This document shows positions 6,131-13,873 of a DNA stretch of 25,559 bases, in pieces. This stretch comes from Propionibacterium ruminifibrarum (lineage in GTDB: Bacteria > Actinomycetota > Actinomycetes > Propionibacteriales > Propionibacteriaceae). The DNA is taken from the NCBI RefSeq assembly GCF_900289195.1, contig NZ_OMOH01000005.1, positions 265,930-291,488 of the forward strand, in the 5' to 3' direction. The notes under the pieces are model-generated. The model saw only the letters and a program-made list of their open reading frames with translations, searched no databases and was not told the DNA's origin. Positions within the stretch are counted from its first letter, which is position 1, and the number at the start of each line of letters is the position of its first letter. The translations under genes and the position numbers were made by a program.

Positions 6131-9097
6131 ATGGCAGCACGCAGGACGACACTGGCGGGCATCCTGGCGCGGCGCGGGTTCACCGGCGCCGCCCACGCCG
6201 CCGAGGTGCTCGAGTCGCTGCCGGTCGACCCGGCCGGGCTCATCGACGAGCTGGCCGCCACGGCCGACCCGGACCTCGCCCTCACCGCCTTCGCCGAACT
6301 CCTCGACAAGGACCCCGAGCTCATCAACGAGGTCATGGGCGACGGCGACTGGCGCCGCCGCCTGGTCACCGTCATCGGCTTCAGCCAGGCCCTCGGCCGC
6401 CACCTGGGCGCCCACCCGCAGGATGTGCGCGTCCTCGCCGACGAGCCGCAACGGTGGACCGCCGCACGCATCCGCGCCGACCTGCTCACCGCCATCGGGC
6501 TGGGCGAACTCGTCGACGCCCGACCCGACGAGCTGGCCTGGGCCGTCGCCACCGAACCCGATGCCGCCGACCGGCTGCGCCTGGCCAACAAGCGCCACCT
6601 GCTGCGGATCGCCGGGCGTGACCTGTCGGCCGACGACCCCCCGGAGATCGTGAGCTCGGTCGCCTCCGAACTCGCCGACCTCGCGGACGCCATCATGGGC
6701 TGCGCACTCGCGATCGCCCGCGGGCAGGTCACCGAGCAGGCAAAGGCCAGGCTGGGGGTCATCGCGCTCGGGAAGTGCGGAGCCCAGGAGCTCAACTACC
6801 TGTCCGACATCGACGTGCTCTTCGTCGCCGAACCCGCCGACGAGTCGGTCCCCTCCTCGGAGGCCACCGCGGTGGGCAATCTCATCGCCGCCGCCATGAC
6901 CCGCATCTGCTCGGCCCACTCCGCCAGCGGCACCATCTGGCAGGTCGACGCGGCACTGCGCCCCGAGGGCAAGAAGGGCCCGCTCACCCGCACCCTGTCC
7001 GGGCACCGGGCCTACTACGAGCGCTGGGCCAGGAACTGGGAGTTCCAGGCCATGCTCAAGGCCCGCCCCATGGCCGGCCACCCCGAGCTGACGGCCGGTT
7101 TCTGCCGGATCGTCGAACCCCTTGTCTGGCAGGCCGGCGGCCGCGACGACTTCATGAGCGAGGCGCAGGCCATGCGCCGCCGGGTCGTCGACCTCATCCC
7201 GGCCAAGGACACCGAGACCGAGATCAAGCTCGGCGCCGGCGGCCTGCGCGACATCGAGTTCAGCGTGCAGCTGCTCCAGCTCGTCCACGGCCGTGTCGAT
7301 GAGCGGCTGCGCCTGCGCGGCACCCTGCCCGCCCTGCGGGCACTGGCCCAGCACGGCTACATCGGCCGCGGTGACGCCTCCGAGCTCGACCGGGCCTACC
7401 GGTTCGAGCGTGTCGTCGAGCACCGCATCCAGCTGTTCAACCTGCGCCGCAGTCACCTGATGCCGCTGTGCGACGACGACCGACGCCGCATCGCCCGCTC
7501 CCTGGGCATGCACGAAGGTGAGGAACTGTGGCACGCCTGGCGCAGCACGGCCCGTGACGTCGAGCACCGGCAGCGCCGCATCTTCTACTCGCCGCTGCTG
7601 GAAGCCGTCTCGCAGCTGTCCGACGAGGAGCTGCGGCTGTCCCCGCAGGCAGCCCAGGACCGCCTCAAGGCCCTCGGCTTCGCCGACCCGCGCTCGGCGC
7701 TGGCCCACATCGAGGCGCTCACCAAGGGGGCCAGTCGCACAGCTGAGATCCAGCGCCAGCTCATGCCCGCCATGCTCGGCTGGTTCGCCGAGGGCCCCAA
7801 CCCCGACCTCGGCCTGCTCAGCTTCCGTCAGCTGTCCGAGGCGATGGGCGGCACCAGCTGGTACATGCGCGCCCTCCGGGACGAGGGGCAGATGGCCGAG
7901 TCCCTGGCGACGATCCTGTCGAGCAGCCGCTACGTCATCAAGATGATCGGCTACGTGCCCGGCGCGGTGCAGATGCTCGCCGACAGCTCCCAGCTCGCCC
8001 CGCGCAGCCGCGAGAGCCTCTCCGAGACGATGAGCGCCGCAGCCCGCCGCCACGACGACACCGAGGAGGCGATCGAGGCGCTGCGCACCATACGGTGCCG
8101 CGAACTCACCCGCCTGGCCCTCGGCGACGCCCTCGGCCTGGTCACCACCCAGAACGTGGGCGCCGGACTGTCGTCGGTCATGGCCGCGACCATCGAGGTC
8201 GCCCTGGCCATCATCGGGCGCGAGCAGATCGACCCGGTGCCGCCGATCGGGGTCGTCGCGATGGGACGCTGGGGCGGCGCCGAACTCAGCTACGGTTCGG
8301 ACGCCGACGCCATGTTCATCGTCCCCGACGGCACGAGCAGCGAGCAGCTGGCCGTCGCCACCCGCGTCGTGGCCCGCCTGCGCGCCCTGCTCAACGCGCC
8401 GGGACGCGGCCCCGCCCTGCGGGTCGACGCCGACCTGAGGCCCGAGGGCAAGGAGGGTCCGATGGTGCGTACCCTGTCCGGCTACCTGACCTACTACGAG
8501 CGGTGGTCGAGCACCTGGGAGCACCAGGCCCTCGTGCGGGCCGACTACGGCGCCGGCGACCGCGGACTCGTCGACGCCCTGCTGGACGGCATCGCGCCGC
8601 TGCGCTACCCGCCCGGCGGTCTCAGGGCCGAGCAGGTGACCGAGATCCGCAGGCTCAAGGGGCGGATGGAACGCGAACGCATCCGGCGCGGCACCGACCC
8701 GCACCGCAACCTCAAACTCGGCCCCGGCGGCCTGTCCGACGTCGAGTGGACCGTCCAGCTGCTGCAGATGCAGCACGCCGGCGACCTCGAACAGCTGCGC
8801 ACCCCGACGACGATGACCGCGCTGGCCGCCCTGCGTGAGACCGGTCTCGTGGGCGAGCACGACGCCCAGGTGCTCGGGCGGGCGTGGCGGCTGGCCAGCG
8901 CGCTGCGCGACCACACGATGCTCGTCAGCGGCCGCTCCAGCGACCTGCTGCCCTCGGACCCGCGCGACCTGGCGGCCATCGCCCTGCAGATGCGCCGGGA
9001 CATGAAGAACGCCTCCGAGCTCATCGAGGACTGGGAACGCACCTCGCGGCGCGCCTCGAACGTCGTCGACCGCATCTTCTGGGAGCGTGACGCATGA
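6131..9097 (+). CDS. glnE: Bifunctional glutamine synthetase adenylyltransferase / adenylyl-removing enzyme
   Basis: 988 aa with GAGGAGG upstream of ATG 6131. Two homologous nucleotidyltransferase halves are present: LGKCGAQELNYLSDIDVLFV...DAALRPEGKKGPL and MGRWGGAELSYGSDADAMFIV...DADLRPEGKEGPM. This is the typical GlnE architecture and size. Confidence 0.95.
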   Translation: MAARRTTLAGILARRGFTGAAHAAEVLESLPVDPAGLIDELAATADPDLALTAFAELLDKDPELINEVMGDGDWRRRLVTVIGFSQALGRHLGAHPQDVRVLADEPQRWTAARIRADLLTAIGLGELVDARPDELAWAVATEPDAADRLRLANKRHLLRIAGRDLSADDPPEIVSSVASELADLADAIMGCALAIARGQVTEQAKARLGVIALGKCGAQELNYLSDIDVLFVAEPADESVPSSEATAVGNLIAAAMTRICSAHSASGTIWQVDAALRPEGKKGPLTRTLSGHRAYYERWARNWEFQAMLKARPMAGHPELTAGFCRIVEPLVWQAGGRDDFMSEAQAMRRRVVDLIPAKDTETEIKLGAGGLRDIEFSVQLLQLVHGRVDERLRLRGTLPALRALAQHGYIGRGDASELDRAYRFERVVEHRIQLFNLRRSHLMPLCDDDRRRIARSLGMHEGEELWHAWRSTARDVEHRQRRIFYSPLLEAVSQLSDEELRLSPQAAQDRLKALGFADPRSALAHIEALTKGASRTAEIQRQLMPAMLGWFAEGPNPDLGLLSFRQLSEAMGGTSWYMRALRDEGQMAESLATILSSSRYVIKMIGYVPGAVQMLADSSQLAPRSRESLSETMSAAARRHDDTEEAIEALRTIRCRELTRLALGDALGLVTTQNVGAGLSSVMAATIEVALAIIGREQIDPVPPIGVVAMGRWGGAELSYGSDADAMFIVPDGTSSEQLAVATRVVARLRALLNAPGRGPALRVDADLRPEGKEGPMVRTLSGYLTYYERWSSTWEHQALVRADYGAGDRGLVDALLDGIAPLRYPPGGLRAEQVTEIRRLKGRMERERIRRGTDPHRNLKLGPGGLSDVEWTVQLLQMQHAGDLEQLRTPTTMTALAALRETGLVGEHDAQVLGRAWRLASALRDHTMLVSGRSSDLLPSDPRDLAAIALQMRRDMKNASELIEDWERTSRRASNVVDRIFWERDA

Positions 9098-9927
9098 GGC
9101 GCCCGAGATTCCCGCAGGGCACCGGCCGGAACCCCGGTGCCGGGCGACCGGAGCCGGGCCGGGGCGCCGACCGCGATGACGGCGCCCTGGTCGTCTTCGG
9201 CGGGACGAGCGACATCGGCCTTGCCATCGCGGCGGAGCTGCTGGCGAGCGCGCCCCGACCCGTCGTCCTCGTGTGCCGGGCGGGCGCGCCCCGGCTGCCC
9301 GCGGCCCGCCGGGCGATGCTCGACGCGGGCGCGACCCGCGTGCGGGTCATCGACCTCGACGTCACCGACCTGGGGGCCCACGAGAGGGCCGTCGACGAGG
9401 CCTTCGCCGACCCGGTCGGCCGTGTCATCGTGGCCTTCGGGGTGCTCGGCGACCAGGAGCGGGCCTGGCAGGACGCGGACGCCGCCGTCAACGTCTTCAC
9501 CGTCAACACGACGGCCGCGGTGAGCATCGGCGTGCTCGTCGCCCAGCGGCTCCGCGGGCAGGTGTGGGCGACCGGGCGGCGCGGCCGCATCATCGCGATC
9601 AGTTCGGTGGCGGCCGAACGGGTGCGGCGCTCCAACTTCGTCTACGGCGCCTCCAAGGCCGGTATGGACGGCTTCTTCACCGGCCTGCGGGAGGCCCTGC
9701 GCCCCGACGGCATCGGCGTGCTCCTCGTCCGCCCGGGCTTCGTGCGCAGCGCGATGACGGCGGGGCGTCGCGTCGCGCTCGCGGTCGACCCTGAGCAGGT
9801 CGGCCGGGCCGTGGCCAGGGCCGACGAGGCCGGCCGCGAGCTGGTGCGCGTGCCGGCCGTCTTCGGGCCGCTCATGGCGGTCTTCACCGTGCTGCCGTCG
9901 TCGCTGGCACGCCGACTGCCCTGGTGA
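9094..9927 (+). CDS. Short-chain dehydrogenase/reductase, DprE2-like (decaprenylphospho-D-erythro-pentofuranosid-2-ulose 2-reductase family)
   Basis: ATG 9094 overlaps the glnE stop (ATGA at 9094-9097). Motifs VVFGGTSDIGLAI (dinucleotide binding), ISSVAAERVRRSNFVYGASKAGMDGF (Ser...Tyr-x3-Lys) and LVRPGFVRSAMT. As I recall, these are collinear with M. tuberculosis DprE2/Rv3791. The 30-aa Arg/Pro/Gly-rich N-terminal extension is of uncertain reality. Confidence 0.85.
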   Translation: MRRPRFPQGTGRNPGAGRPEPGRGADRDDGALVVFGGTSDIGLAIAAELLASAPRPVVLVCRAGAPRLPAARRAMLDAGATRVRVIDLDVTDLGAHERAVDEAFADPVGRVIVAFGVLGDQERAWQDADAAVNVFTVNTTAAVSIGVLVAQRLRGQVWATGRRGRIIAISSVAAERVRRSNFVYGASKAGMDGFFTGLREALRPDGIGVLLVRPGFVRSAMTAGRRVALAVDPEQVGRAVARADEAGRELVRVPAVFGPLMAVFTVLPSSLARRLPW

Positions 9928-9951
9928 TGATCTGCTGAACGGCGGTGGTTC

Positions 9952-10512
9952 TCAGCCGGCCCCGGCGGCGATGCCGTCCAGGAGCAGCTGGACGCCGGCG
10001 CGGAAGTCCGTCTCGCCGTCCTCGGCCGCGAGGGCCGCGCCCCCGTCCGCGCCGGCCAGCGGGGACAGTTGGGCGCGCTGCTGCTCCTCGTTGACGTGGC
10101 CGATGACCAGATGGACGAGTGTGCGGGCGCCCAGACCGGCCCGCGCCTGGTCGAATCCCGCCGCGATGAGCGCCGCCGCGGGCCCCTCGGCCAGGTCGGT
10201 GGCCGCCATGTTGATGGCTCGCATGCTGGCGAGCAGATCGGCTGAGTCGCGGTGGGCCAGCAGGCGGGCCCGCAACTCGTCGGCCCACGCGGCCAGGGAC
10301 TGGCGCCACGGCCCGGCGGGGACCTCGAGGCCGTCGAGAATGGTCGCGACGAGTCTGGCGAGCAGGGTCTGCTTGTTGGCGACGTGCCAGTAGAGCGCCC
10401 CTGCCTTCACGTCGAGGGTCCCGGCCAAGCGGCGCATCGTCAGATCGGCCAGGCCGTACTCGTCGAGAATGCTCAGGGCCGCGTCGATGACGTCCTTCTC
10501 GGTCAGTGCCAT
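9952..10512 (-). CDS. TetR/AcrR family transcriptional regulator
   Basis: The N-terminal HTH (IDAALSILDEYGLADLTMRRLAGTLDVKAGALYWHVANKQTLL) is classic TetR_N. 186 aa. Confidence 0.9.
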   Translation of the reverse strand: MALTEKDVIDAALSILDEYGLADLTMRRLAGTLDVKAGALYWHVANKQTLLARLVATILDGLEVPAGPWRQSLAAWADELRARLLAHRDSADLLASMRAINMAATDLAEGPAAALIAAGFDQARAGLGARTLVHLVIGHVNEEQQRAQLSPLAGADGGAALAAEDGETDFRAGVQLLLDGIAAGAG

Positions 10513-10519
10513 GCTGCGA

Positions 10520-11050
10520 TCAGCCCAGCGCGTCGTAGAGGTCGTTCGTGAAGGCGCCGAGCTCTTCGGCGGTCGAGCCGGTCGCGGTGACCTGGATCAG
10601 CCCGCCGGTCAGCTCGCGGGTGCAGGTGGTGGCGTCCGGTACGTCCTGGGGCGTGCCGCAGTGGGAGGCGCCGACCGTCGTCGAGCCGGTCGTCCTCCTG
10701 CGCTGCGACTCCAGGTAGCCCTTGTCCCGGGTCGCGATGAGGGTCACGAGACGGGTGCCGGTGCCGTCGGTGTAGAGGCCGGTCTGCAGGACGGCCGACG
10801 AGTTGTCGATGGTCGTCGGCGCCGGGGTGGGGGACTCCCGGGTGCTCCAGCCCGCGATCTGTGCGGGAAGGACGAGTCCCTCGGCGGCCAGGGGCGACGG
10901 GCTGCCCGATGCGCTCGAAGCCGGGCTGGAGGGGCTCGCTGCGGTGGAGCTCGCCGAGGGCTCCGGTGCCGGCGGATCCGCGCACCCGGCAAGCGCCAGC
11001 ACGGCCAGTGCCGTGCCGCCGATCGCGAGTGAGTGCTTCAGGAAGCCCAT
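10520..11050 (-). CDS. Putative secreted lipoprotein, unknown function
   Basis: Signal peptide MGFLKHSLAIGGTALAVLALAG|C with a lipobox, then a Ser/Pro/Ala-rich linker and a small Thr/Gly-rich domain with 2 Cys. Its stop is 7 nt before the TetR start, so the two probably form an operon. Confidence 0.7.
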   Translation of the reverse strand: MGFLKHSLAIGGTALAVLALAGCADPPAPEPSASSTAASPSSPASSASGSPSPLAAEGLVLPAQIAGWSTRESPTPAPTTIDNSSAVLQTGLYTDGTGTRLVTLIATRDKGYLESQRRRTTGSTTVGASHCGTPQDVPDATTCTRELTGGLIQVTATGSTAEELGAFTNDLYDALG

Positions 11051-11099
11051 GAGGCCAAGTATGGCAGTCCCGATGGGCTGAGAAACGAGCGTCTAGAAC

Positions 11100-11128
11100 T
11101 TGCAGATACAAGTGAAAGCTCTTACTGT
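11100..11128 (+). promoter_or_regulatory. Candidate sigma-70-type promoter of the HTH/PIN module
   Basis: TTGCAG (11100-11105), a 17-nt spacer, then TACTGT (11123-11128) in a roughly 50% GC intergenic island. The small palindrome CTGTtACAG (11125-11133) overlaps the -10, and CTCGCGAG (11150-11157) lies downstream; both are possible autoregulation operators. Confidence 0.35.
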
Positions 11129-11200
11129 TACAGATGATGTCGAGGACTTCTCGCGAGGGCTCTCGCATCAACTCGGCAGGGTGTTCAAGGGAGGAAGCCG

Positions 11201-11611
11201 ATGGCCATCGTGACCGACGCCGAACATGTCCTGACAACTGCCGAGGATGCGCGGGCAGCCGAAACCGTGGCCGAGGAGATGCGTCGTCCCAAGGCCGTTC
11301 TGCACATTGAGAACCTGCCGCTGCGAACCGTGGAGCTCATTCTCCGGGTACTCGACGTGACGGCAAGGGGAGGGACTCTCAGTGTCACCGCTCTGCCCGA
11401 AGAGCTGACGACGTCCACCGCGGCCAAGATCCTCGGCATCTCGCGCCCCACCCTGATGAAGATGATCCGTGAAGGCCGGATCCCGGCCCACGAGGTGGGG
11501 ACGCACCACAGGCTGAGGACCGAGGACGTCTTCACGGAGCTGCATGAGCGCCGTGAACGCCAACGCGCAGCCTTCGCCGAACTCCTCGAACTGGAAGGTG
11601 ATGAACTGTGA
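11201..11611 (+). CDS. Excisionase/MerR-type helix-turn-helix protein, putative type II antitoxin
   Basis: GGGAGGAAG upstream of ATG 11201. The C-terminal half LTTSTAAKILGISRPTLMKMIREGRIPAHEVGTHHRLRTEDV is an HTH_17-like DNA-binding domain, followed by an acidic tail. It sits directly upstream of a PIN gene. Confidence 0.75.
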   Translation: MAIVTDAEHVLTTAEDARAAETVAEEMRRPKAVLHIENLPLRTVELILRVLDVTARGGTLSVTALPEELTTSTAAKILGISRPTLMKMIREGRIPAHEVGTHHRLRTEDVFTELHERRERQRAAFAELLELEGDEL

Positions 11612-11725
11612 CCCTCGTCCTGCCGCTCTGCGTGGAAGGACGTTCTTCTCGTGAACAGCATGCCGAAGGATGTGCTGTTACGCTTGGCGAGTGATGACCC
11701 TTGGGGGAACCTCGATCTTCCCTGA
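11608..11725 (+). pseudogene. Possible ghost of a displaced PIN-toxin 5' end (non-functional)
   Basis: GTG 11608 overlaps the antitoxin stop (GTGA) and reads VTLVLPLCVEG... before stopping at 11692. The frame continuous with the antitoxin, past its TGA, reads PSSCRSAWKDVLLVNSMPKDVLLRLASDDPWGNLDLP*. As I recall, this resembles the LLDT.VL....RD.LL.LA..GL..P.W N-terminus of this PIN family. KDVLL is encoded twice (11636-11650 and 11666-11680) with different synonymous codons. Confidence 0.3.
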
Positions 11726-12305
11726 CGCCAACTTCTGGATGTCCAGGACACTTCGGGACTGGCTGATCCAGATTTATTTGGTGCCAGAGCATGCCCCTTT
11801 CATGGTCTACTGGACTGAGGATGTTTACGCTGAAACCGCTTATCACCTGCGACGGAAACACCCTGAGTGGGATGGCAAGAATGTCGCAAAGTTTCGGGAA
11901 AAGTTTGAGGTCGTGTTCCCGGCGGGACGGCTGGATGATTTCGATGGGCGGCCTGACAACGTTGTTCTTGCAGATGAGAACGATCAACACATTCATGCGG
12001 CAGCGGTTGCTTGCCGGGCTGATTACGTGGTGACCAGTGACAAGGGTTTTCACGCTGTGAACCGGGATGAGCTTCCTTACGAGGTCTATACCCCAGACGA
12101 GTTCTTCACGCTTGTCGACGAGTCGATGCCATCTGTCGTACGGGCGGCGGCTCTACTTCAGTTCAGATACTGGGAGGGTAATACCGACGAACCTGATATC
12201 GCGGCTCACCTGAGGAAAGCAGGGTGTCCAGAGTTTGCGTCACGTGTCGGTCGGCACTTGTACTTAGCGTTGAGCGGCTCGAGCCATGGCCATGCCCCTA
12301 TCTGA
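11694..12305 (+). CDS. PIN-domain (PIN_3-like) ribonuclease, putative type II toxin
   Basis: Track ORF is 11670..12305; I prefer ATG 11694 (MTLGGTSIFPDANFWMSRTLRDWLIQ...), though 11670 and GTG 11691 are possible. It has an N-terminal acidic PIN residue in FPDAN and a C-terminal ADENDQHIHAAAVACRADYVVTSDKGF...YTPDEFF block, typical of the PIN proteins that pair with excisionase-type HTH partners. GC is visibly lower (low to mid 50s % by eye), with many A/T-ending codons. Confidence 0.75.
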   Translation: MTLGGTSIFPDANFWMSRTLRDWLIQIYLVPEHAPFMVYWTEDVYAETAYHLRRKHPEWDGKNVAKFREKFEVVFPAGRLDDFDGRPDNVVLADENDQHIHAAAVACRADYVVTSDKGFHAVNRDELPYEVYTPDEFFTLVDESMPSVVRAAALLQFRYWEGNTDEPDIAAHLRKAGCPEFASRVGRHLYLALSGSSHGHAPI

Positions 12306-12396
12306 CGCTGAGAGGTTAATTTAGCCCAGATCAGTACGGAAGTGACCGGGGGTGGGCAAGGGTCCTTCGAACGGGCTTCTGGATGGCTTAAAGTGC

Positions 12397-12447
12397 CTTC
12401 GGGCCCGCCTCGGTTGAGACGGACCCGAAGACGTGGATTCGAGGCGG
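12397..12447 (-). terminator. Candidate intrinsic terminator of glnA1
   Basis: Immediately after the glnA1 stop there are alternative stems: CCGCCTCG (12405-12412) with CGAGGCGG (12440-12447), and CTTCGGG (12397-12403) with CCCGAAG (12424-12430). On the minus-strand RNA the second is followed by GCACUUUAAG, a weak U tract. Confidence 0.4.
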
Positions 12448-12451
12448 CGGA

Positions 12452-13873
12452 TCAGATCTGGTAGTACAGGTCGAACTCGTAGGGGTGCGGGCGCTGCTGC
12501 AGCTCGGCGATCTCCTCGCGCTTCATGTCGATCCAGGTGTCGATCAGGTCGGGCGTGAAGACGTCACCGGCGAGCAGGTACTCGTTGTCCTCCTCGAGGG
12601 CGTTGAGCACCTCGGCCAGGGAACTGGGGACCTGGTCGACCTCGTCGTACTCTTCGGGCGGCAGCTCGTAGAGGTCCTTGTCGATGGGCGCCGGGGGCTC
12701 GATCTTGTTCTGGATGCCGTCGATGCCGGCCATCAGCTGGGCGGCGAAGGCCAGGTACGGGTTGGAGCTCGGGTCGGGGCAGCGGAACTCGATGCGCTTG
12801 GCCTTCGGGTTCGGGCCCGTGACGGGGATGCGGATGCAGGCCGACCGGTTCCCGTTCGAGTAGACCAGGTTGACCGGGGCCTCGAAGCCCGGCACCAGCC
12901 TGTGGTAGCTGTTCACCGTCGGGTTGGTGAAGGCCAGCAGGCTGGGGGCGTGCTTGAGCAGGCCCCCGATGTAGAAGCGGGCCATGTCGGACAGCTGGGC
13001 GTAGCCGTTCTCGTCGAAGAACAGGGGCTCGCCGTTCTCCCAGATGGACTGGTGGCAGTGCATGCCCGAGCCGTTGTCGCCCGCGACGGGTTTCGGCATG
13101 AAGGTGGCGCTCTTGCCGTGCCGGTAGGCCGTGTTCTTCACGATGTACTTGAACTTCATCGTGTCATCGGCGCTGGCGAGCAGCTCGTCGAAACGCCAGT
13201 TGATCTCGGCCTGGCCGGCCGAGCCGACCTCGTGGTGGGCGCGTTCGATGTCGAGGCCGGCCTTGAGGCAGTACGTGACCATCTCGTCGCGCAGGTCGAC
13301 GTAGTGGTCGGTGGGGGCGACGGGGAAGTAGCCGCCCTTGACGCGGACTTTGTAGCCCTGGTTGCCGCGTTCCTCCTCGCGTCCGCTGTTCCAGGCGGCC
13401 GCCTCGGCGTCGACCGAGTAGAAGGACTGGTGGCCGTTGGTCTCGTAGCGCACGTCGTCGAAGACGTAGAACTCGGCCTCGGGGGCGAAGTAGGCGGTGT
13501 CCCCGATGCCCGTGGTGCTGAGGTAGGCCTGGGCCTTGCGGGCGATGTTGCGGGGGTCGCGGCTGTAGGGCTCCTTCGTGATGGGGTTGTGCACGAAGAA
13601 GTTGACGATGAGAGTCTTGTGATCGCGGAAGGGGTCGAGCCAGGCGCTGGACGGGTCTGGCATGAGGGCCATGTCGGACTCGTTGATGGTGGCGAAGCCC
13701 TTGACCGAGGAACCGTCGAAGGCGAGGCCCTCGGTGAAGGCCTCGGGGCCGAAACCACTGGCCGGGACGACGAAGTGCTGCATGACGCCGGGCAGGTCGC
13801 AGAAGCGTACGTCGATGAACTCGACGTGCTCGTCCTCGATGAACTTCAGCAGGTCGTCGGCGCCTTTGAACAT
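12452..13873 (-). CDS. glnA: Glutamine synthetase type I (GS-I beta, adenylylation-regulated)
   Basis: 473 aa with GGAGGG 5 nt upstream of ATG 13873. N-terminus [29 protein letters not shown], followed by [25 protein letters not shown] and NRSACIRIP. The adenylylation motif [10 protein letters not shown] is present with the Tyr402 codon at 12668-12670. C-terminus is [12 protein letters not shown]. Confidence 0.97.

Follow-up and report, generated by a model that had tools for sequence, protein, structure and literature searches.

Repeated loss and probable re-import of the PIN gene in a putative VapBC-like HTH/PIN_3 module of Propionibacterium ruminifibrarum

We analysed a stretch of 25,559 nucleotides from the actinobacterium Propionibacterium ruminifibrarum, referred to here as the window (contig C27:265930-291488 of a 2.78-Mb host genome with 68.9% GC). 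In it, two plus-strand open reading frames (ORFs) lie between a lipoprotein-TetR gene pair and the 3' end of glnA, one encoding a helix-turn-helix (HTH) protein and the other a PIN_3 nuclease. The reading that we favour, with moderate confidence, is that this islet is a copy of an old actinobacterial HTH/PIN_3 module that resembles the VapBC toxin-antitoxin (TA) systems, that its two genes are separately expressed, that PIN has been lost repeatedly, and that the PIN-plus haplotype of the window was re-imported. The low-GC islet at 11051-12451, first pointed out in an earlier note made from the letters of this DNA, was confirmed, as the GC content of 200-nt windows falls from 0.70-0.80 (8000-10999) to 0.52-0.65 (11000-12499). 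The two genes are:

11201..11611, plus strand: HTH gene, 136 aa, putative antitoxin and/or repressor
11691..12305, plus strand: PIN gene, putative toxin, 204 aa from GTG 11691 (predicted leaderless start) or 203 aa from ATG 11694

The two proteins

The HTH protein scored above the curated cutoffs of both PF12728 HTH_17 (45.3 bits, cutoff 27, 1e-11) and TIGR01764 'excise' (52.2 bits, cutoff 28.8, 5.8e-14). In its AlphaFold model (predicted local distance difference test, pLDDT, 86), two N-terminal helices precede a winged HTH at residues ~66-110, and a long C-terminal helix with an acidic tail follows. The best matches of this fold were Pukovnik Xis, BldC, RacA, RdfS and MerR-type domains, on which the core superposes with a root-mean-square deviation of 1.1-2.3 Å (best chains, ~46-59 residues) and a TM score of 0.65-0.80 normalised by target length. 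Domain matches and fold thus agree with the excisionase-type identity proposed in the earlier note.

The PIN protein matched PF13470 PIN_3 at 35.6 bits (cutoff 27, E 1.8e-8), the sole PIN_3 match in the genome. It consists of a nuclease domain (residues ~6-125) and a conserved four-helix C-terminal extension with the motif AGCPxFAxRV. Residues D11, E47 and D94 are invariant across 55 PIN homologues, at least 90% of which also share D97, H99, H101 and T114; the fourth acidic position lies in T114-x-D116, with D or N at 116 in family members. All four acidic residues, D11, E47, D94 and D116, are retained in the window, as expected of the PIN_3 nuclease that had been predicted there. The AlphaFold model (pLDDT 92.4) had PIN domains as its top Foldseek matches (PAE2754, M. 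tuberculosis VapC20 and VapBC26, and Utp24), with high probability and modest E-values, and a sequence search of the PDB with the PIN profile returned no relative. At 44 highly conserved columns the protein deviates three times, each time conservatively, and judged from these columns it looks functional. An ATG at 11670 also lies in the open frame, but it was rejected as the PIN start as it misfits the N-terminus of the family.

An old pair in Actinobacteria

We scanned prokaryotes by pattern, each species represented by one genome, and obtained 60 loci with PIN relatives (33-50% identity), which span Pseudonocardiaceae, Propionibacteriaceae, Microbacteriaceae, Micrococcaceae, Nocardioidaceae, Corynebacteriaceae and others. 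An HTH homologue stood directly upstream on the same strand in 58 of them, and the two exceptions were truncated matches. The pair was also found on 37 actinobacterial plasmids, including 14-kb Prescottella plasmids, and RefSeq labels one plasmid copy 'VapC family toxin' beside 'HTH domain-containing protein'. When 1.84 billion cluster representatives were searched with the PIN profile, 208 matched at E<=1e-30 and 2,099 at E<=1e-10; a phage collection gave no PIN match. On the 14-kb Prescottella equi plasmid pRSRe2287 (L097, 4530-4558 onward), the pair lies near TIR-domain and TPR-domain genes, which hints at a defence neighbourhood.

The window's HTH falls among Propionibacteriaceae/Micropruina sequences in the HTH tree, and the HTH and PIN protein trees recover the same groups. 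The PIN data were compatible with the HTH-based placement of the window in the approximately unbiased (AU) test (p 0.22-0.26). Pairwise HTH and PIN distances were correlated (r 0.747, Mantel p 0.001), with a residual of 1.5 sd for the window. To judge from these loci, trees and distances, HTH and PIN co-diverge as an old conserved two-gene module, and their pairing is not chance.

The earlier note had instead read the islet as a mosaic whose antitoxin and toxin have different histories. Spelled out as a chimera, a resident HTH would have gained a lower-GC foreign PIN, and antitoxin and toxin would be of separate origin and not a co-evolved pair. Two properties of the PIN protein would suit this: its nearest counterpart among 5.8 billion proteins is 55% identical, against 77-99% for relatives of HTH, and its terminal branch measures 1.11 against a median of 0.29. 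However, the same two families are paired at nearly every locus of the scan, and the incongruence of phylogenies that had been suggested as a check was not found, the placements of the two proteins being compatible and their distances correlated. Together with the evidence from sister species and from composition given below, this makes the chimera improbable in our judgement.

Loss of PIN between species

The lipoprotein/glnA site is occupied differently in related species. In the closest one (G004, lipoprotein 90% identical) both genes are absent, and 50 nt separate the lipoprotein gene from the glnA terminator. A more distant species (G002) has a solo HTH at the same site. Relatives whose HTH is 87%, 80% or 77% identical, known from metagenomic or genomic sequences (L025 and L028-L033 among the solo-HTH loci), likewise carry HTH exactly at the site without PIN. 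In the 80% group (L028-L033), the spacer and the first 24 PIN codons are kept, reading RAMIFGSGSV(L/F)PDANFWMSRTPRD, and are fused to the glnA terminator. This remnant matches the window with 67-71% identity (E 4e-7 to 6e-8). Because it lies beside an orthologous HTH, the pair was already at the site in the common ancestor. By these alignments PIN is a gene that has been deleted several times, with different end points.

Decay of PIN was also seen elsewhere. About 6 of 59 other loci of the HTH/PIN family have kept HTH intact next to a PIN that is truncated or frameshifted. In one genome of the window's own taxonomic family (G016, L003 965-1848), an intact HTH homologue of 163 aa is followed by a PIN frame that matches only residues ~80-199.

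These states bear on two questions. Viewed as a horizontal islet, the pair has an atypical composition and is missing from the closest species; yet four other lineages carry HTH at the site and one carries the PIN remnant, so the module is old here and its absence reflects loss. As for the chimera, the 24-codon remnant of matching divergence stands behind an orthologous HTH in a sister species, and the many close relatives of HTH are PIN-less orthologues; both points speak against it.

After loss of its partner HTH did not degrade. The ratio of nonsynonymous to synonymous substitution rates (dN/dS) of HTH is 0.04-0.24, including between PIN-less lineages, and its promoter and Shine-Dalgarno (SD) site are conserved in relatives. 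The orphan HTH is kept under strong purifying selection.

PIN presence and absence within the species

The segment that varies between strains is:

11614..12398, plus strand: presence/absence segment (spacer, PIN and 3' tail), 785 nt, with blastn boundaries against L023, L024, L095 and L096

These four PIN-minus sequences (L023 is an NCBI assembly) are 95-99% identical to the window flanks and share one common junction, at which 11614-12398 is replaced by an unrelated 40-nt filler. On the PIN-plus side stand the window and a metagenome contig, L094, that is 99.8% identical to it. The left-flank tree, (L096,(window,(L023,L095))) with 96% support, places PIN-minus strains on both sides of the window, and from this topology the PIN-minus junction is older than the split of the window from L023 and L095. 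Single-nucleotide polymorphisms (SNPs) private to the window number 5 in the last 208 nt of HTH and 5 in the other 1,240 nt. This cluster fits a recombination tract from a close donor, ~2.4% diverged. The history with the fewest events, and the most likely one, is that homologous recombination brought the PIN-plus segment back once; the direction of this event we infer.

At the strain level, then, the genealogy of the PIN segment differs from that of HTH and the flanks, and to this extent the 'different histories' claimed in the earlier note are retained; at the level of gene families they are not. The sharp identity boundaries against conspecific strains, at 11613 and 12399, would be expected of a chimera too, but the HTH end of the putative import tract differs by ~2.4%, which indicates a close donor.

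A further explanation needs no recombination. PIN would have been inherited vertically with HTH while PIN-minus alleles spread among the other strains, and its silent sites would have drifted to A/T in place, under weak selection on codon use or weak GC-biased gene conversion in a little-shared gene of low expression. The flank tree then requires at least two transfers of the PIN-minus junction, compared with one of the PIN-plus segment, and drift alone leaves the cluster of private SNPs by the junction unexplained.

Composition of the two genes

GC content and GC at third codon positions (GC3) were 0.637 and 0.752 for HTH and 0.549 and 0.603 for PIN, compared with a GC3 of 0.915-0.960 in neighbouring host genes. 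The GC content of PIN is within the lowest 1.7% of 612-nt windows of the genome. The codon adaptation index (CAI) was 0.249 for PIN, 0.465 for HTH and 0.67-0.86 for the neighbours, with the genome's 1st percentile at 0.42, and 60 of the 203 PIN codons are rare. The earlier note had called for GC3 and codon adaptation to be computed per gene, and the values agree with its impression of PIN. The compositional break that it placed between the genes holds in so far as PIN is clearly below HTH. It is not clean at the boundary, since the first ~40 PIN codons have a GC3 of 0.75-0.80 and the drop comes only after them. A single TTA codon, at PIN codon 191 (12264-12266), lies near the 3' end; the host uses TTA 0.05 times per 1000 codons and has a tRNA-Leu(UAA) gene.

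We compared these values with 49 homologous HTH-PIN pairs, taking the expectation from flank GC. The GC3 of the window's PIN is 15 points low for its flank GC (z -3.2), with GC1, GC2 and amino-acid make-up normal, and the GC3 of its HTH is as expected (z +0.45). The difference between the two genes (PIN GC3 minus HTH GC3, -0.149; mean +0.029, sd 0.052) is the most extreme of the 49 pairs, which would favour the chimera, but a PIN whose first two codon positions and amino-acid composition are normal for the family would not. Across the 49 pairs both module genes lie below host GC3. In relatives of the window HTH has a GC3 of 0.77-0.85, so the module has been below host composition over species-level time.

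A shift confined to silent sites in a well-conserved protein argues against both protein decay and a distant donor. Decay of the PIN protein was ruled out as the cause by the few, conservative deviations at its conserved columns. In the reading that we prefer, selection on codons or GC-biased conversion would be weak on this accessory gene, which would be little shared and of low expression, and the AT shift would stem from this. Under the re-import reading, the low-GC3 PIN would have travelled with a PIN-plus haplotype that moves between backgrounds by recombination, and its origin would not be foreign.

Much of this is also what drift in place would predict. Silent sites alone have shifted, the PIN protein is intact and conserved, and in family and genus alike both module genes have a GC3 lower than that of the host (0.75-0.85 for HTH). 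Moreover, the order of GC3 (core 0.93 > HTH 0.75 > PIN 0.60) tracks how widely each gene is shared. Yet the GC3 of the first ~40 PIN codons is unexplained by drift, as are the flank tree in its fewest events and the SNP cluster. We regard drift without recombination as possible but doubtful.

Probable separate expression of HTH and PIN

The features that concern expression of the two genes are:

11098..11133, plus strand: putative HTH promoter read from the sequence, -35 TTGCAG 11100-11105, 17-nt spacer, -10 TACTGT 11123-11128
11187..11197, plus strand: HTH SD site AAGGGAGGAAG, with GGAGG 6 nt before ATG 11201
11615..11697, plus strand: imperfect spacer RNA hairpin, minimum free energy -35.8 kcal/mol, z -3.15 against 200 dinucleotide shuffles
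11676..11684, plus strand: predicted PIN -10 box TGt-TACGCT, extended -10 TG 11676-11677, hexamer 11679-11684 ending 6 nt before GTG 11691

The promoter of HTH had been described in the earlier note and is present. Its core, within the block TTGC(A/G)GAT(A/G)CA(A/G)(G/A)TGAAAG...TA(C/T)nGT, is conserved in four relatives with HTH identities of 99, 87, 80 and 77%; a generic sigma-70 scan did not call TTGCAG-17-TACTGT. Small palindromes suited to autoregulation had also been proposed here. Three exist, ACTTG-N6-CAAGT at 11098-11113, CTGTTACAG at 11125-11133 and CTCGCGAG at 11150-11157, the first two overlapping the -35 and -10 boxes, respectively. They are short, with arms of 4-5 nt, and none reached the threshold of the repeat finder.

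The gap between HTH and PIN is 82 nt to ATG 11694 and 79 nt to the in-frame GTG 11691. All 59 measurable pairs of the family are free of overlap, their genes being 3 to ~126 nt apart (median 41). The gap that had been called unusual for a type II module is thus real and lies in the upper tail of the family, close to the 78-79 nt of Micrococcus, but non-overlap as such is normal here (59 of 59 pairs).

We then looked at what precedes PIN, with start codons picked from the protein alignment only. The end of a TANNNT hexamer lies 6 nt upstream of the PIN start in 34 loci and 7 nt upstream in 12, together 46 of 59 loci, and any other offset occurs in at most 3 loci. The count rises to 53 of 59 when neighbouring in-frame starts are allowed, as for GTGATG in the window. 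The hexamer is preceded by C at -3 (0.57) and G at -2 (0.68). PIN starts in 46-53 of 59 loci thus have a -10-type box and no SD site. The HTH genes served as an internal control, with the TANNNT box in 1 of 59 and a GGAGG-like site 5-10 nt upstream in ~55 of 59. In the sister species with a dead PIN, the corresponding -10 hexamer has lost its A. The arrangement therefore differs from that of a type II operon with overlapping or translationally coupled genes.

Leaderless promoters have been mapped in related bacteria. In M. tuberculosis, mapping has established both the CGNTANNNT -10 element and how far it lies from the start site, and leaderless mRNAs dominate the TA genes (PMC3898074). A TAnnnT box and frequent AUG/GUG leaderless mRNAs were likewise mapped in Cutibacterium acnes (PMC3848588). 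The PIN box agrees with these in both sequence and spacing. From this agreement we think it likely that PIN has a promoter of its own, from which a leaderless mRNA is made, and that HTH is SD-led. With the predicted -10 box of PIN placed in the spacer, this would explain why the genes never overlap. Such a layout for PIN modules is apparently undescribed in the literature.

It is a more tentative suggestion that the whole PIN family is wired in this split manner, with HTH made from a leadered SD mRNA and the toxin solely from its own leaderless mRNA. In actinobacteria that are not growing, leaderless transcripts are at a relative advantage in translation (PMC3898074, PMC8485053). If the suggestion is right, the toxin:antitoxin ratio could follow the translational state of the cell and not proteolysis of the antitoxin, and read-through RNA would have its toxin start shut off by the spacer hairpin.

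The 3' strand of that hairpin covers the GTG/ATG start of PIN, and it could perhaps occlude the start on read-through from the HTH promoter. As a family-wide feature the hairpin was rejected, the median z being 0.05 over 54 spacers, with strong folds only in the window and some long spacers. Four long spacers in other genera (L043, L073, L076 and L093) have near-perfect GC-rich hairpins right after the HTH stop (z -2.4 to -4.4), which by sequence look like terminators that would further separate the two transcripts. An Rfam scan of 10900-12600 found nothing relevant, its single match being a chance snoRNA (E 0.14), and this ruled out the spacer as a known RNA element. A frame of 28 codons (11608-11694) also runs through the spacer, its GTG overlapping the HTH stop (GTGA) and its TGA overlapping the PIN ATG (TGATG). 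We did not rely on it as a translational coupler, since the GTGA overlap is absent in the sister species and its length is unsurprising by chance.

Proposed function and history

Taken together, we propose that the module would behave as a VapBC-like type II TA system in which the PIN protein acts as a Mg2+-dependent RNase. The HTH protein would restrain PIN through contact with the protein, through repression of the PIN promoter, or in both ways. HTH would be expressed from its conserved promoter with a ~70-nt leader and an SD site, and PIN from the -10 box in the spacer, as a leaderless mRNA starting at GTG 11691. Toxicity of PIN and its neutralisation by HTH would follow by analogy with such systems. 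As to history, the ancestor of several species in the genus would already have had the module between the lipoprotein gene and glnA. PIN would have been deleted independently in most lineages, with HTH retained as an orphan under purifying selection. Most sampled strains would then carry an old PIN-minus haplotype, and the PIN-plus haplotype of the window would have been regained from a close PIN-plus lineage through homologous recombination.

Several observations weigh against parts of this proposal. The haplotype conflict rests on six sequences, and spread of the PIN-minus allele could also produce it. The 40-nt filler aligns poorly to the spacers of the window, G002 and L028. Another pair (L059) has a nearly similar GC3 gap between HTH and PIN (-0.13). 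Operator words common to the HTH upstream region and the spacer were found in 3 of 48 loci at p<0.05, which equals chance, and no conserved -35 box precedes PIN in the family loci. In addition, Rv3749c of M. tuberculosis, which is likened to the window's PIN by description only, was not toxic in E. coli (PMC5175181).

The last point would also be expected if the module were no strict TA system. HTH might only repress a separately transcribed PIN that serves a different purpose, for instance RNA processing or defence against phages or plasmids, without any neutralisation between the proteins. PIN has its own predicted promoter and no translational coupling, and the HTH model is a full winged-helix/MerR-like DNA binder with a long helix of dimerisation type. 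Strong purifying selection on HTH in the absence of PIN points to a function of its own. Rv3749c, by description a PIN gene next to an excisionase-like gene, was not toxic in E. coli, and a BREX cluster beside glnA in sister species makes the site a variable, defence-prone spot. On the other hand, PIN almost never occurs without HTH, whereas HTH often occurs without PIN, and this asymmetry is expected if PIN is harmful alone. The two proteins co-diverge as interacting partners do, and the family is found on small plasmids, which fits an addiction role. A PADLOC search gave no defence-system match for PIN, and for HTH only a weak match to mad1. We consider a purely repressive role of HTH unlikely, and keep to the proposal of a VapBC-like module.

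By itself the pair is a further predicted PIN TA locus, but it has implications beyond the locus. One site offers a natural series of intact pair, 24-codon remnant, solo HTH and empty site, which bears on the function of orphan antitoxins. The family-wide leaderless-type -10 box at the toxin, set against an SD-led partner, is a testable regulatory layout. The locus is also a caution for composition-based calls of horizontal transfer, as a strong silent-site shift occurs in a gene whose protein, partner and position are old.

Neighbouring genes and other features of the site

The features around the two genes are:

9952-10512, minus strand: TetR gene, paired with the lipoprotein gene
10520-11050, minus strand: lipoprotein gene, left neighbour, divergent from the HTH gene
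12398..12430, strand not assigned: GC-rich hairpin CTTCGGGCCCG...CGGACCCGAAG, glnA terminator region just past the glnA stop (12452)
12452-13873, minus strand: glnA, with its 3' end facing the PIN gene and its stop at 12452

The hairpin at 12398..12430 is the right-hand border of the PIN segment, where alignment to all relatives resumes. Upstream of the lipoprotein start, at 11051-11075 in plus-strand reading, a CCAAGTATGGCAG motif is invariant in all relatives, including the species without HTH and PIN. It is probably the leader or ribosome-binding region of the lipoprotein gene itself. On the far side of glnA, two sister-species contigs (L025 4096-6372 and L026 3360-5636) carry a BREX cluster (BrxA, BrxB and BrxC), and the window carries an ATP-binding cassette (ABC) exporter pair at that position; the exchange of the two indicates that the neighbourhood of glnA is variable and defence-prone in the genus. 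No integrase of the kind that a functional excisionase would serve was found at the locus, whose neighbours are lipoprotein/TetR and glnA, or at the site in relatives.

Comparison with known systems

The HTH protein shares its core fold and the TIGR01764 match with winged-helix proteins of the Xis/BldC/MerR kind, such as Pukovnik Xis (4j2n) and Streptomyces BldC (6ama). It differs from them in its N-terminal helices and long C-terminal helix, in the lack of an integrase or attachment site at the locus, and in that its constant partner is a PIN gene and not recombination genes. Among nucleases, the PIN protein is a distant cousin of the NCBIfam family NF046100 (RSP_2648 family PIN), a similarly long PIN. 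The alignment is near full length (residues 15-183 to model positions 8-174 of 177), but the score of 42.7 bits against a cutoff of 170 does not make it a member.

In its predicted expression, the module recalls axe-txe of Enterococcus faecium (PMC3760812), where the toxin transcript starts independently of the main antitoxin promoter. There the toxin is of RelE type and its promoter lies inside the antitoxin gene; here the putative toxin is a PIN protein and the predicted box lies in the spacer. The TANNNT box 6-7 nt before the PIN start also resembles the leaderless TA transcripts of M. tuberculosis, actinobacterial TA genes being commonly leaderless (PMC3898074). However, it is normally the first gene of the pair, the antitoxin, that starts leaderless in M. 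tuberculosis, whereas here the toxin would be leaderless and the antitoxin-like gene SD-led.

VapBC50 of M. tuberculosis, with an excisionase-like HTH gene beside a PIN-like gene, is like the module by description only. Its HTH gene Rv3750c is annotated as a 'possible excisionase', and the pair sits by an integrase fragment, whereas the window's pair has no integrase nearby. VapBC50 (Rv3750c / Rv3749c) was named in Sala et al. 2014 (PMC3968373). The earlier note had taken the HTH_17-PIN_3 pairing to be uncharacterised by experiment. Indeed, we found no experimental paper on this subfamily, and the literature held nothing useful on PF13470 and PF12728 together, on PF26343 or on RSP_2648. Nevertheless, the pairing itself is already recognised by annotation pipelines, and VapBC50, a pair of similar description, has been tested (PMC5175181).

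The closest parallel is the PIN_3 branch of the VapBC systems, the Pfam PIN_3 (PF13470) branch being classed as TA toxins (Matelska et al. 2017, PMC5499597). The module shares with it the PIN fold and acidic residues and a small DNA-binding partner upstream on the same strand, and as a conserved pair it has its putative antitoxin gene upstream in 58 of 60 loci, with r 0.75 between the partners. Like VapBC systems, it occupies plasmids and variable chromosomal spots, and its toxin gene decays first, leaving an orphan partner. The differences are that the partner, a winged HTH of the excisionase/MerR type, has its DNA-binding domain in mid-protein instead of an N-terminal ribbon-helix-helix (RHH), AbrB or Phd domain; that its PIN is long (~200 aa), with a four-helix C-terminal extension; and that its genes never overlap, with a predicted leaderless-type -10 box for PIN alone. 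PIN_3 proteins on Tn3 transposons are partnered by RHH_6 (PMC7157771). We conclude that the module is best filed beside the VapBC-type type II systems with PIN_3 toxins, from which it differs in its partner, its PIN length, its coupling and its predicted split expression.

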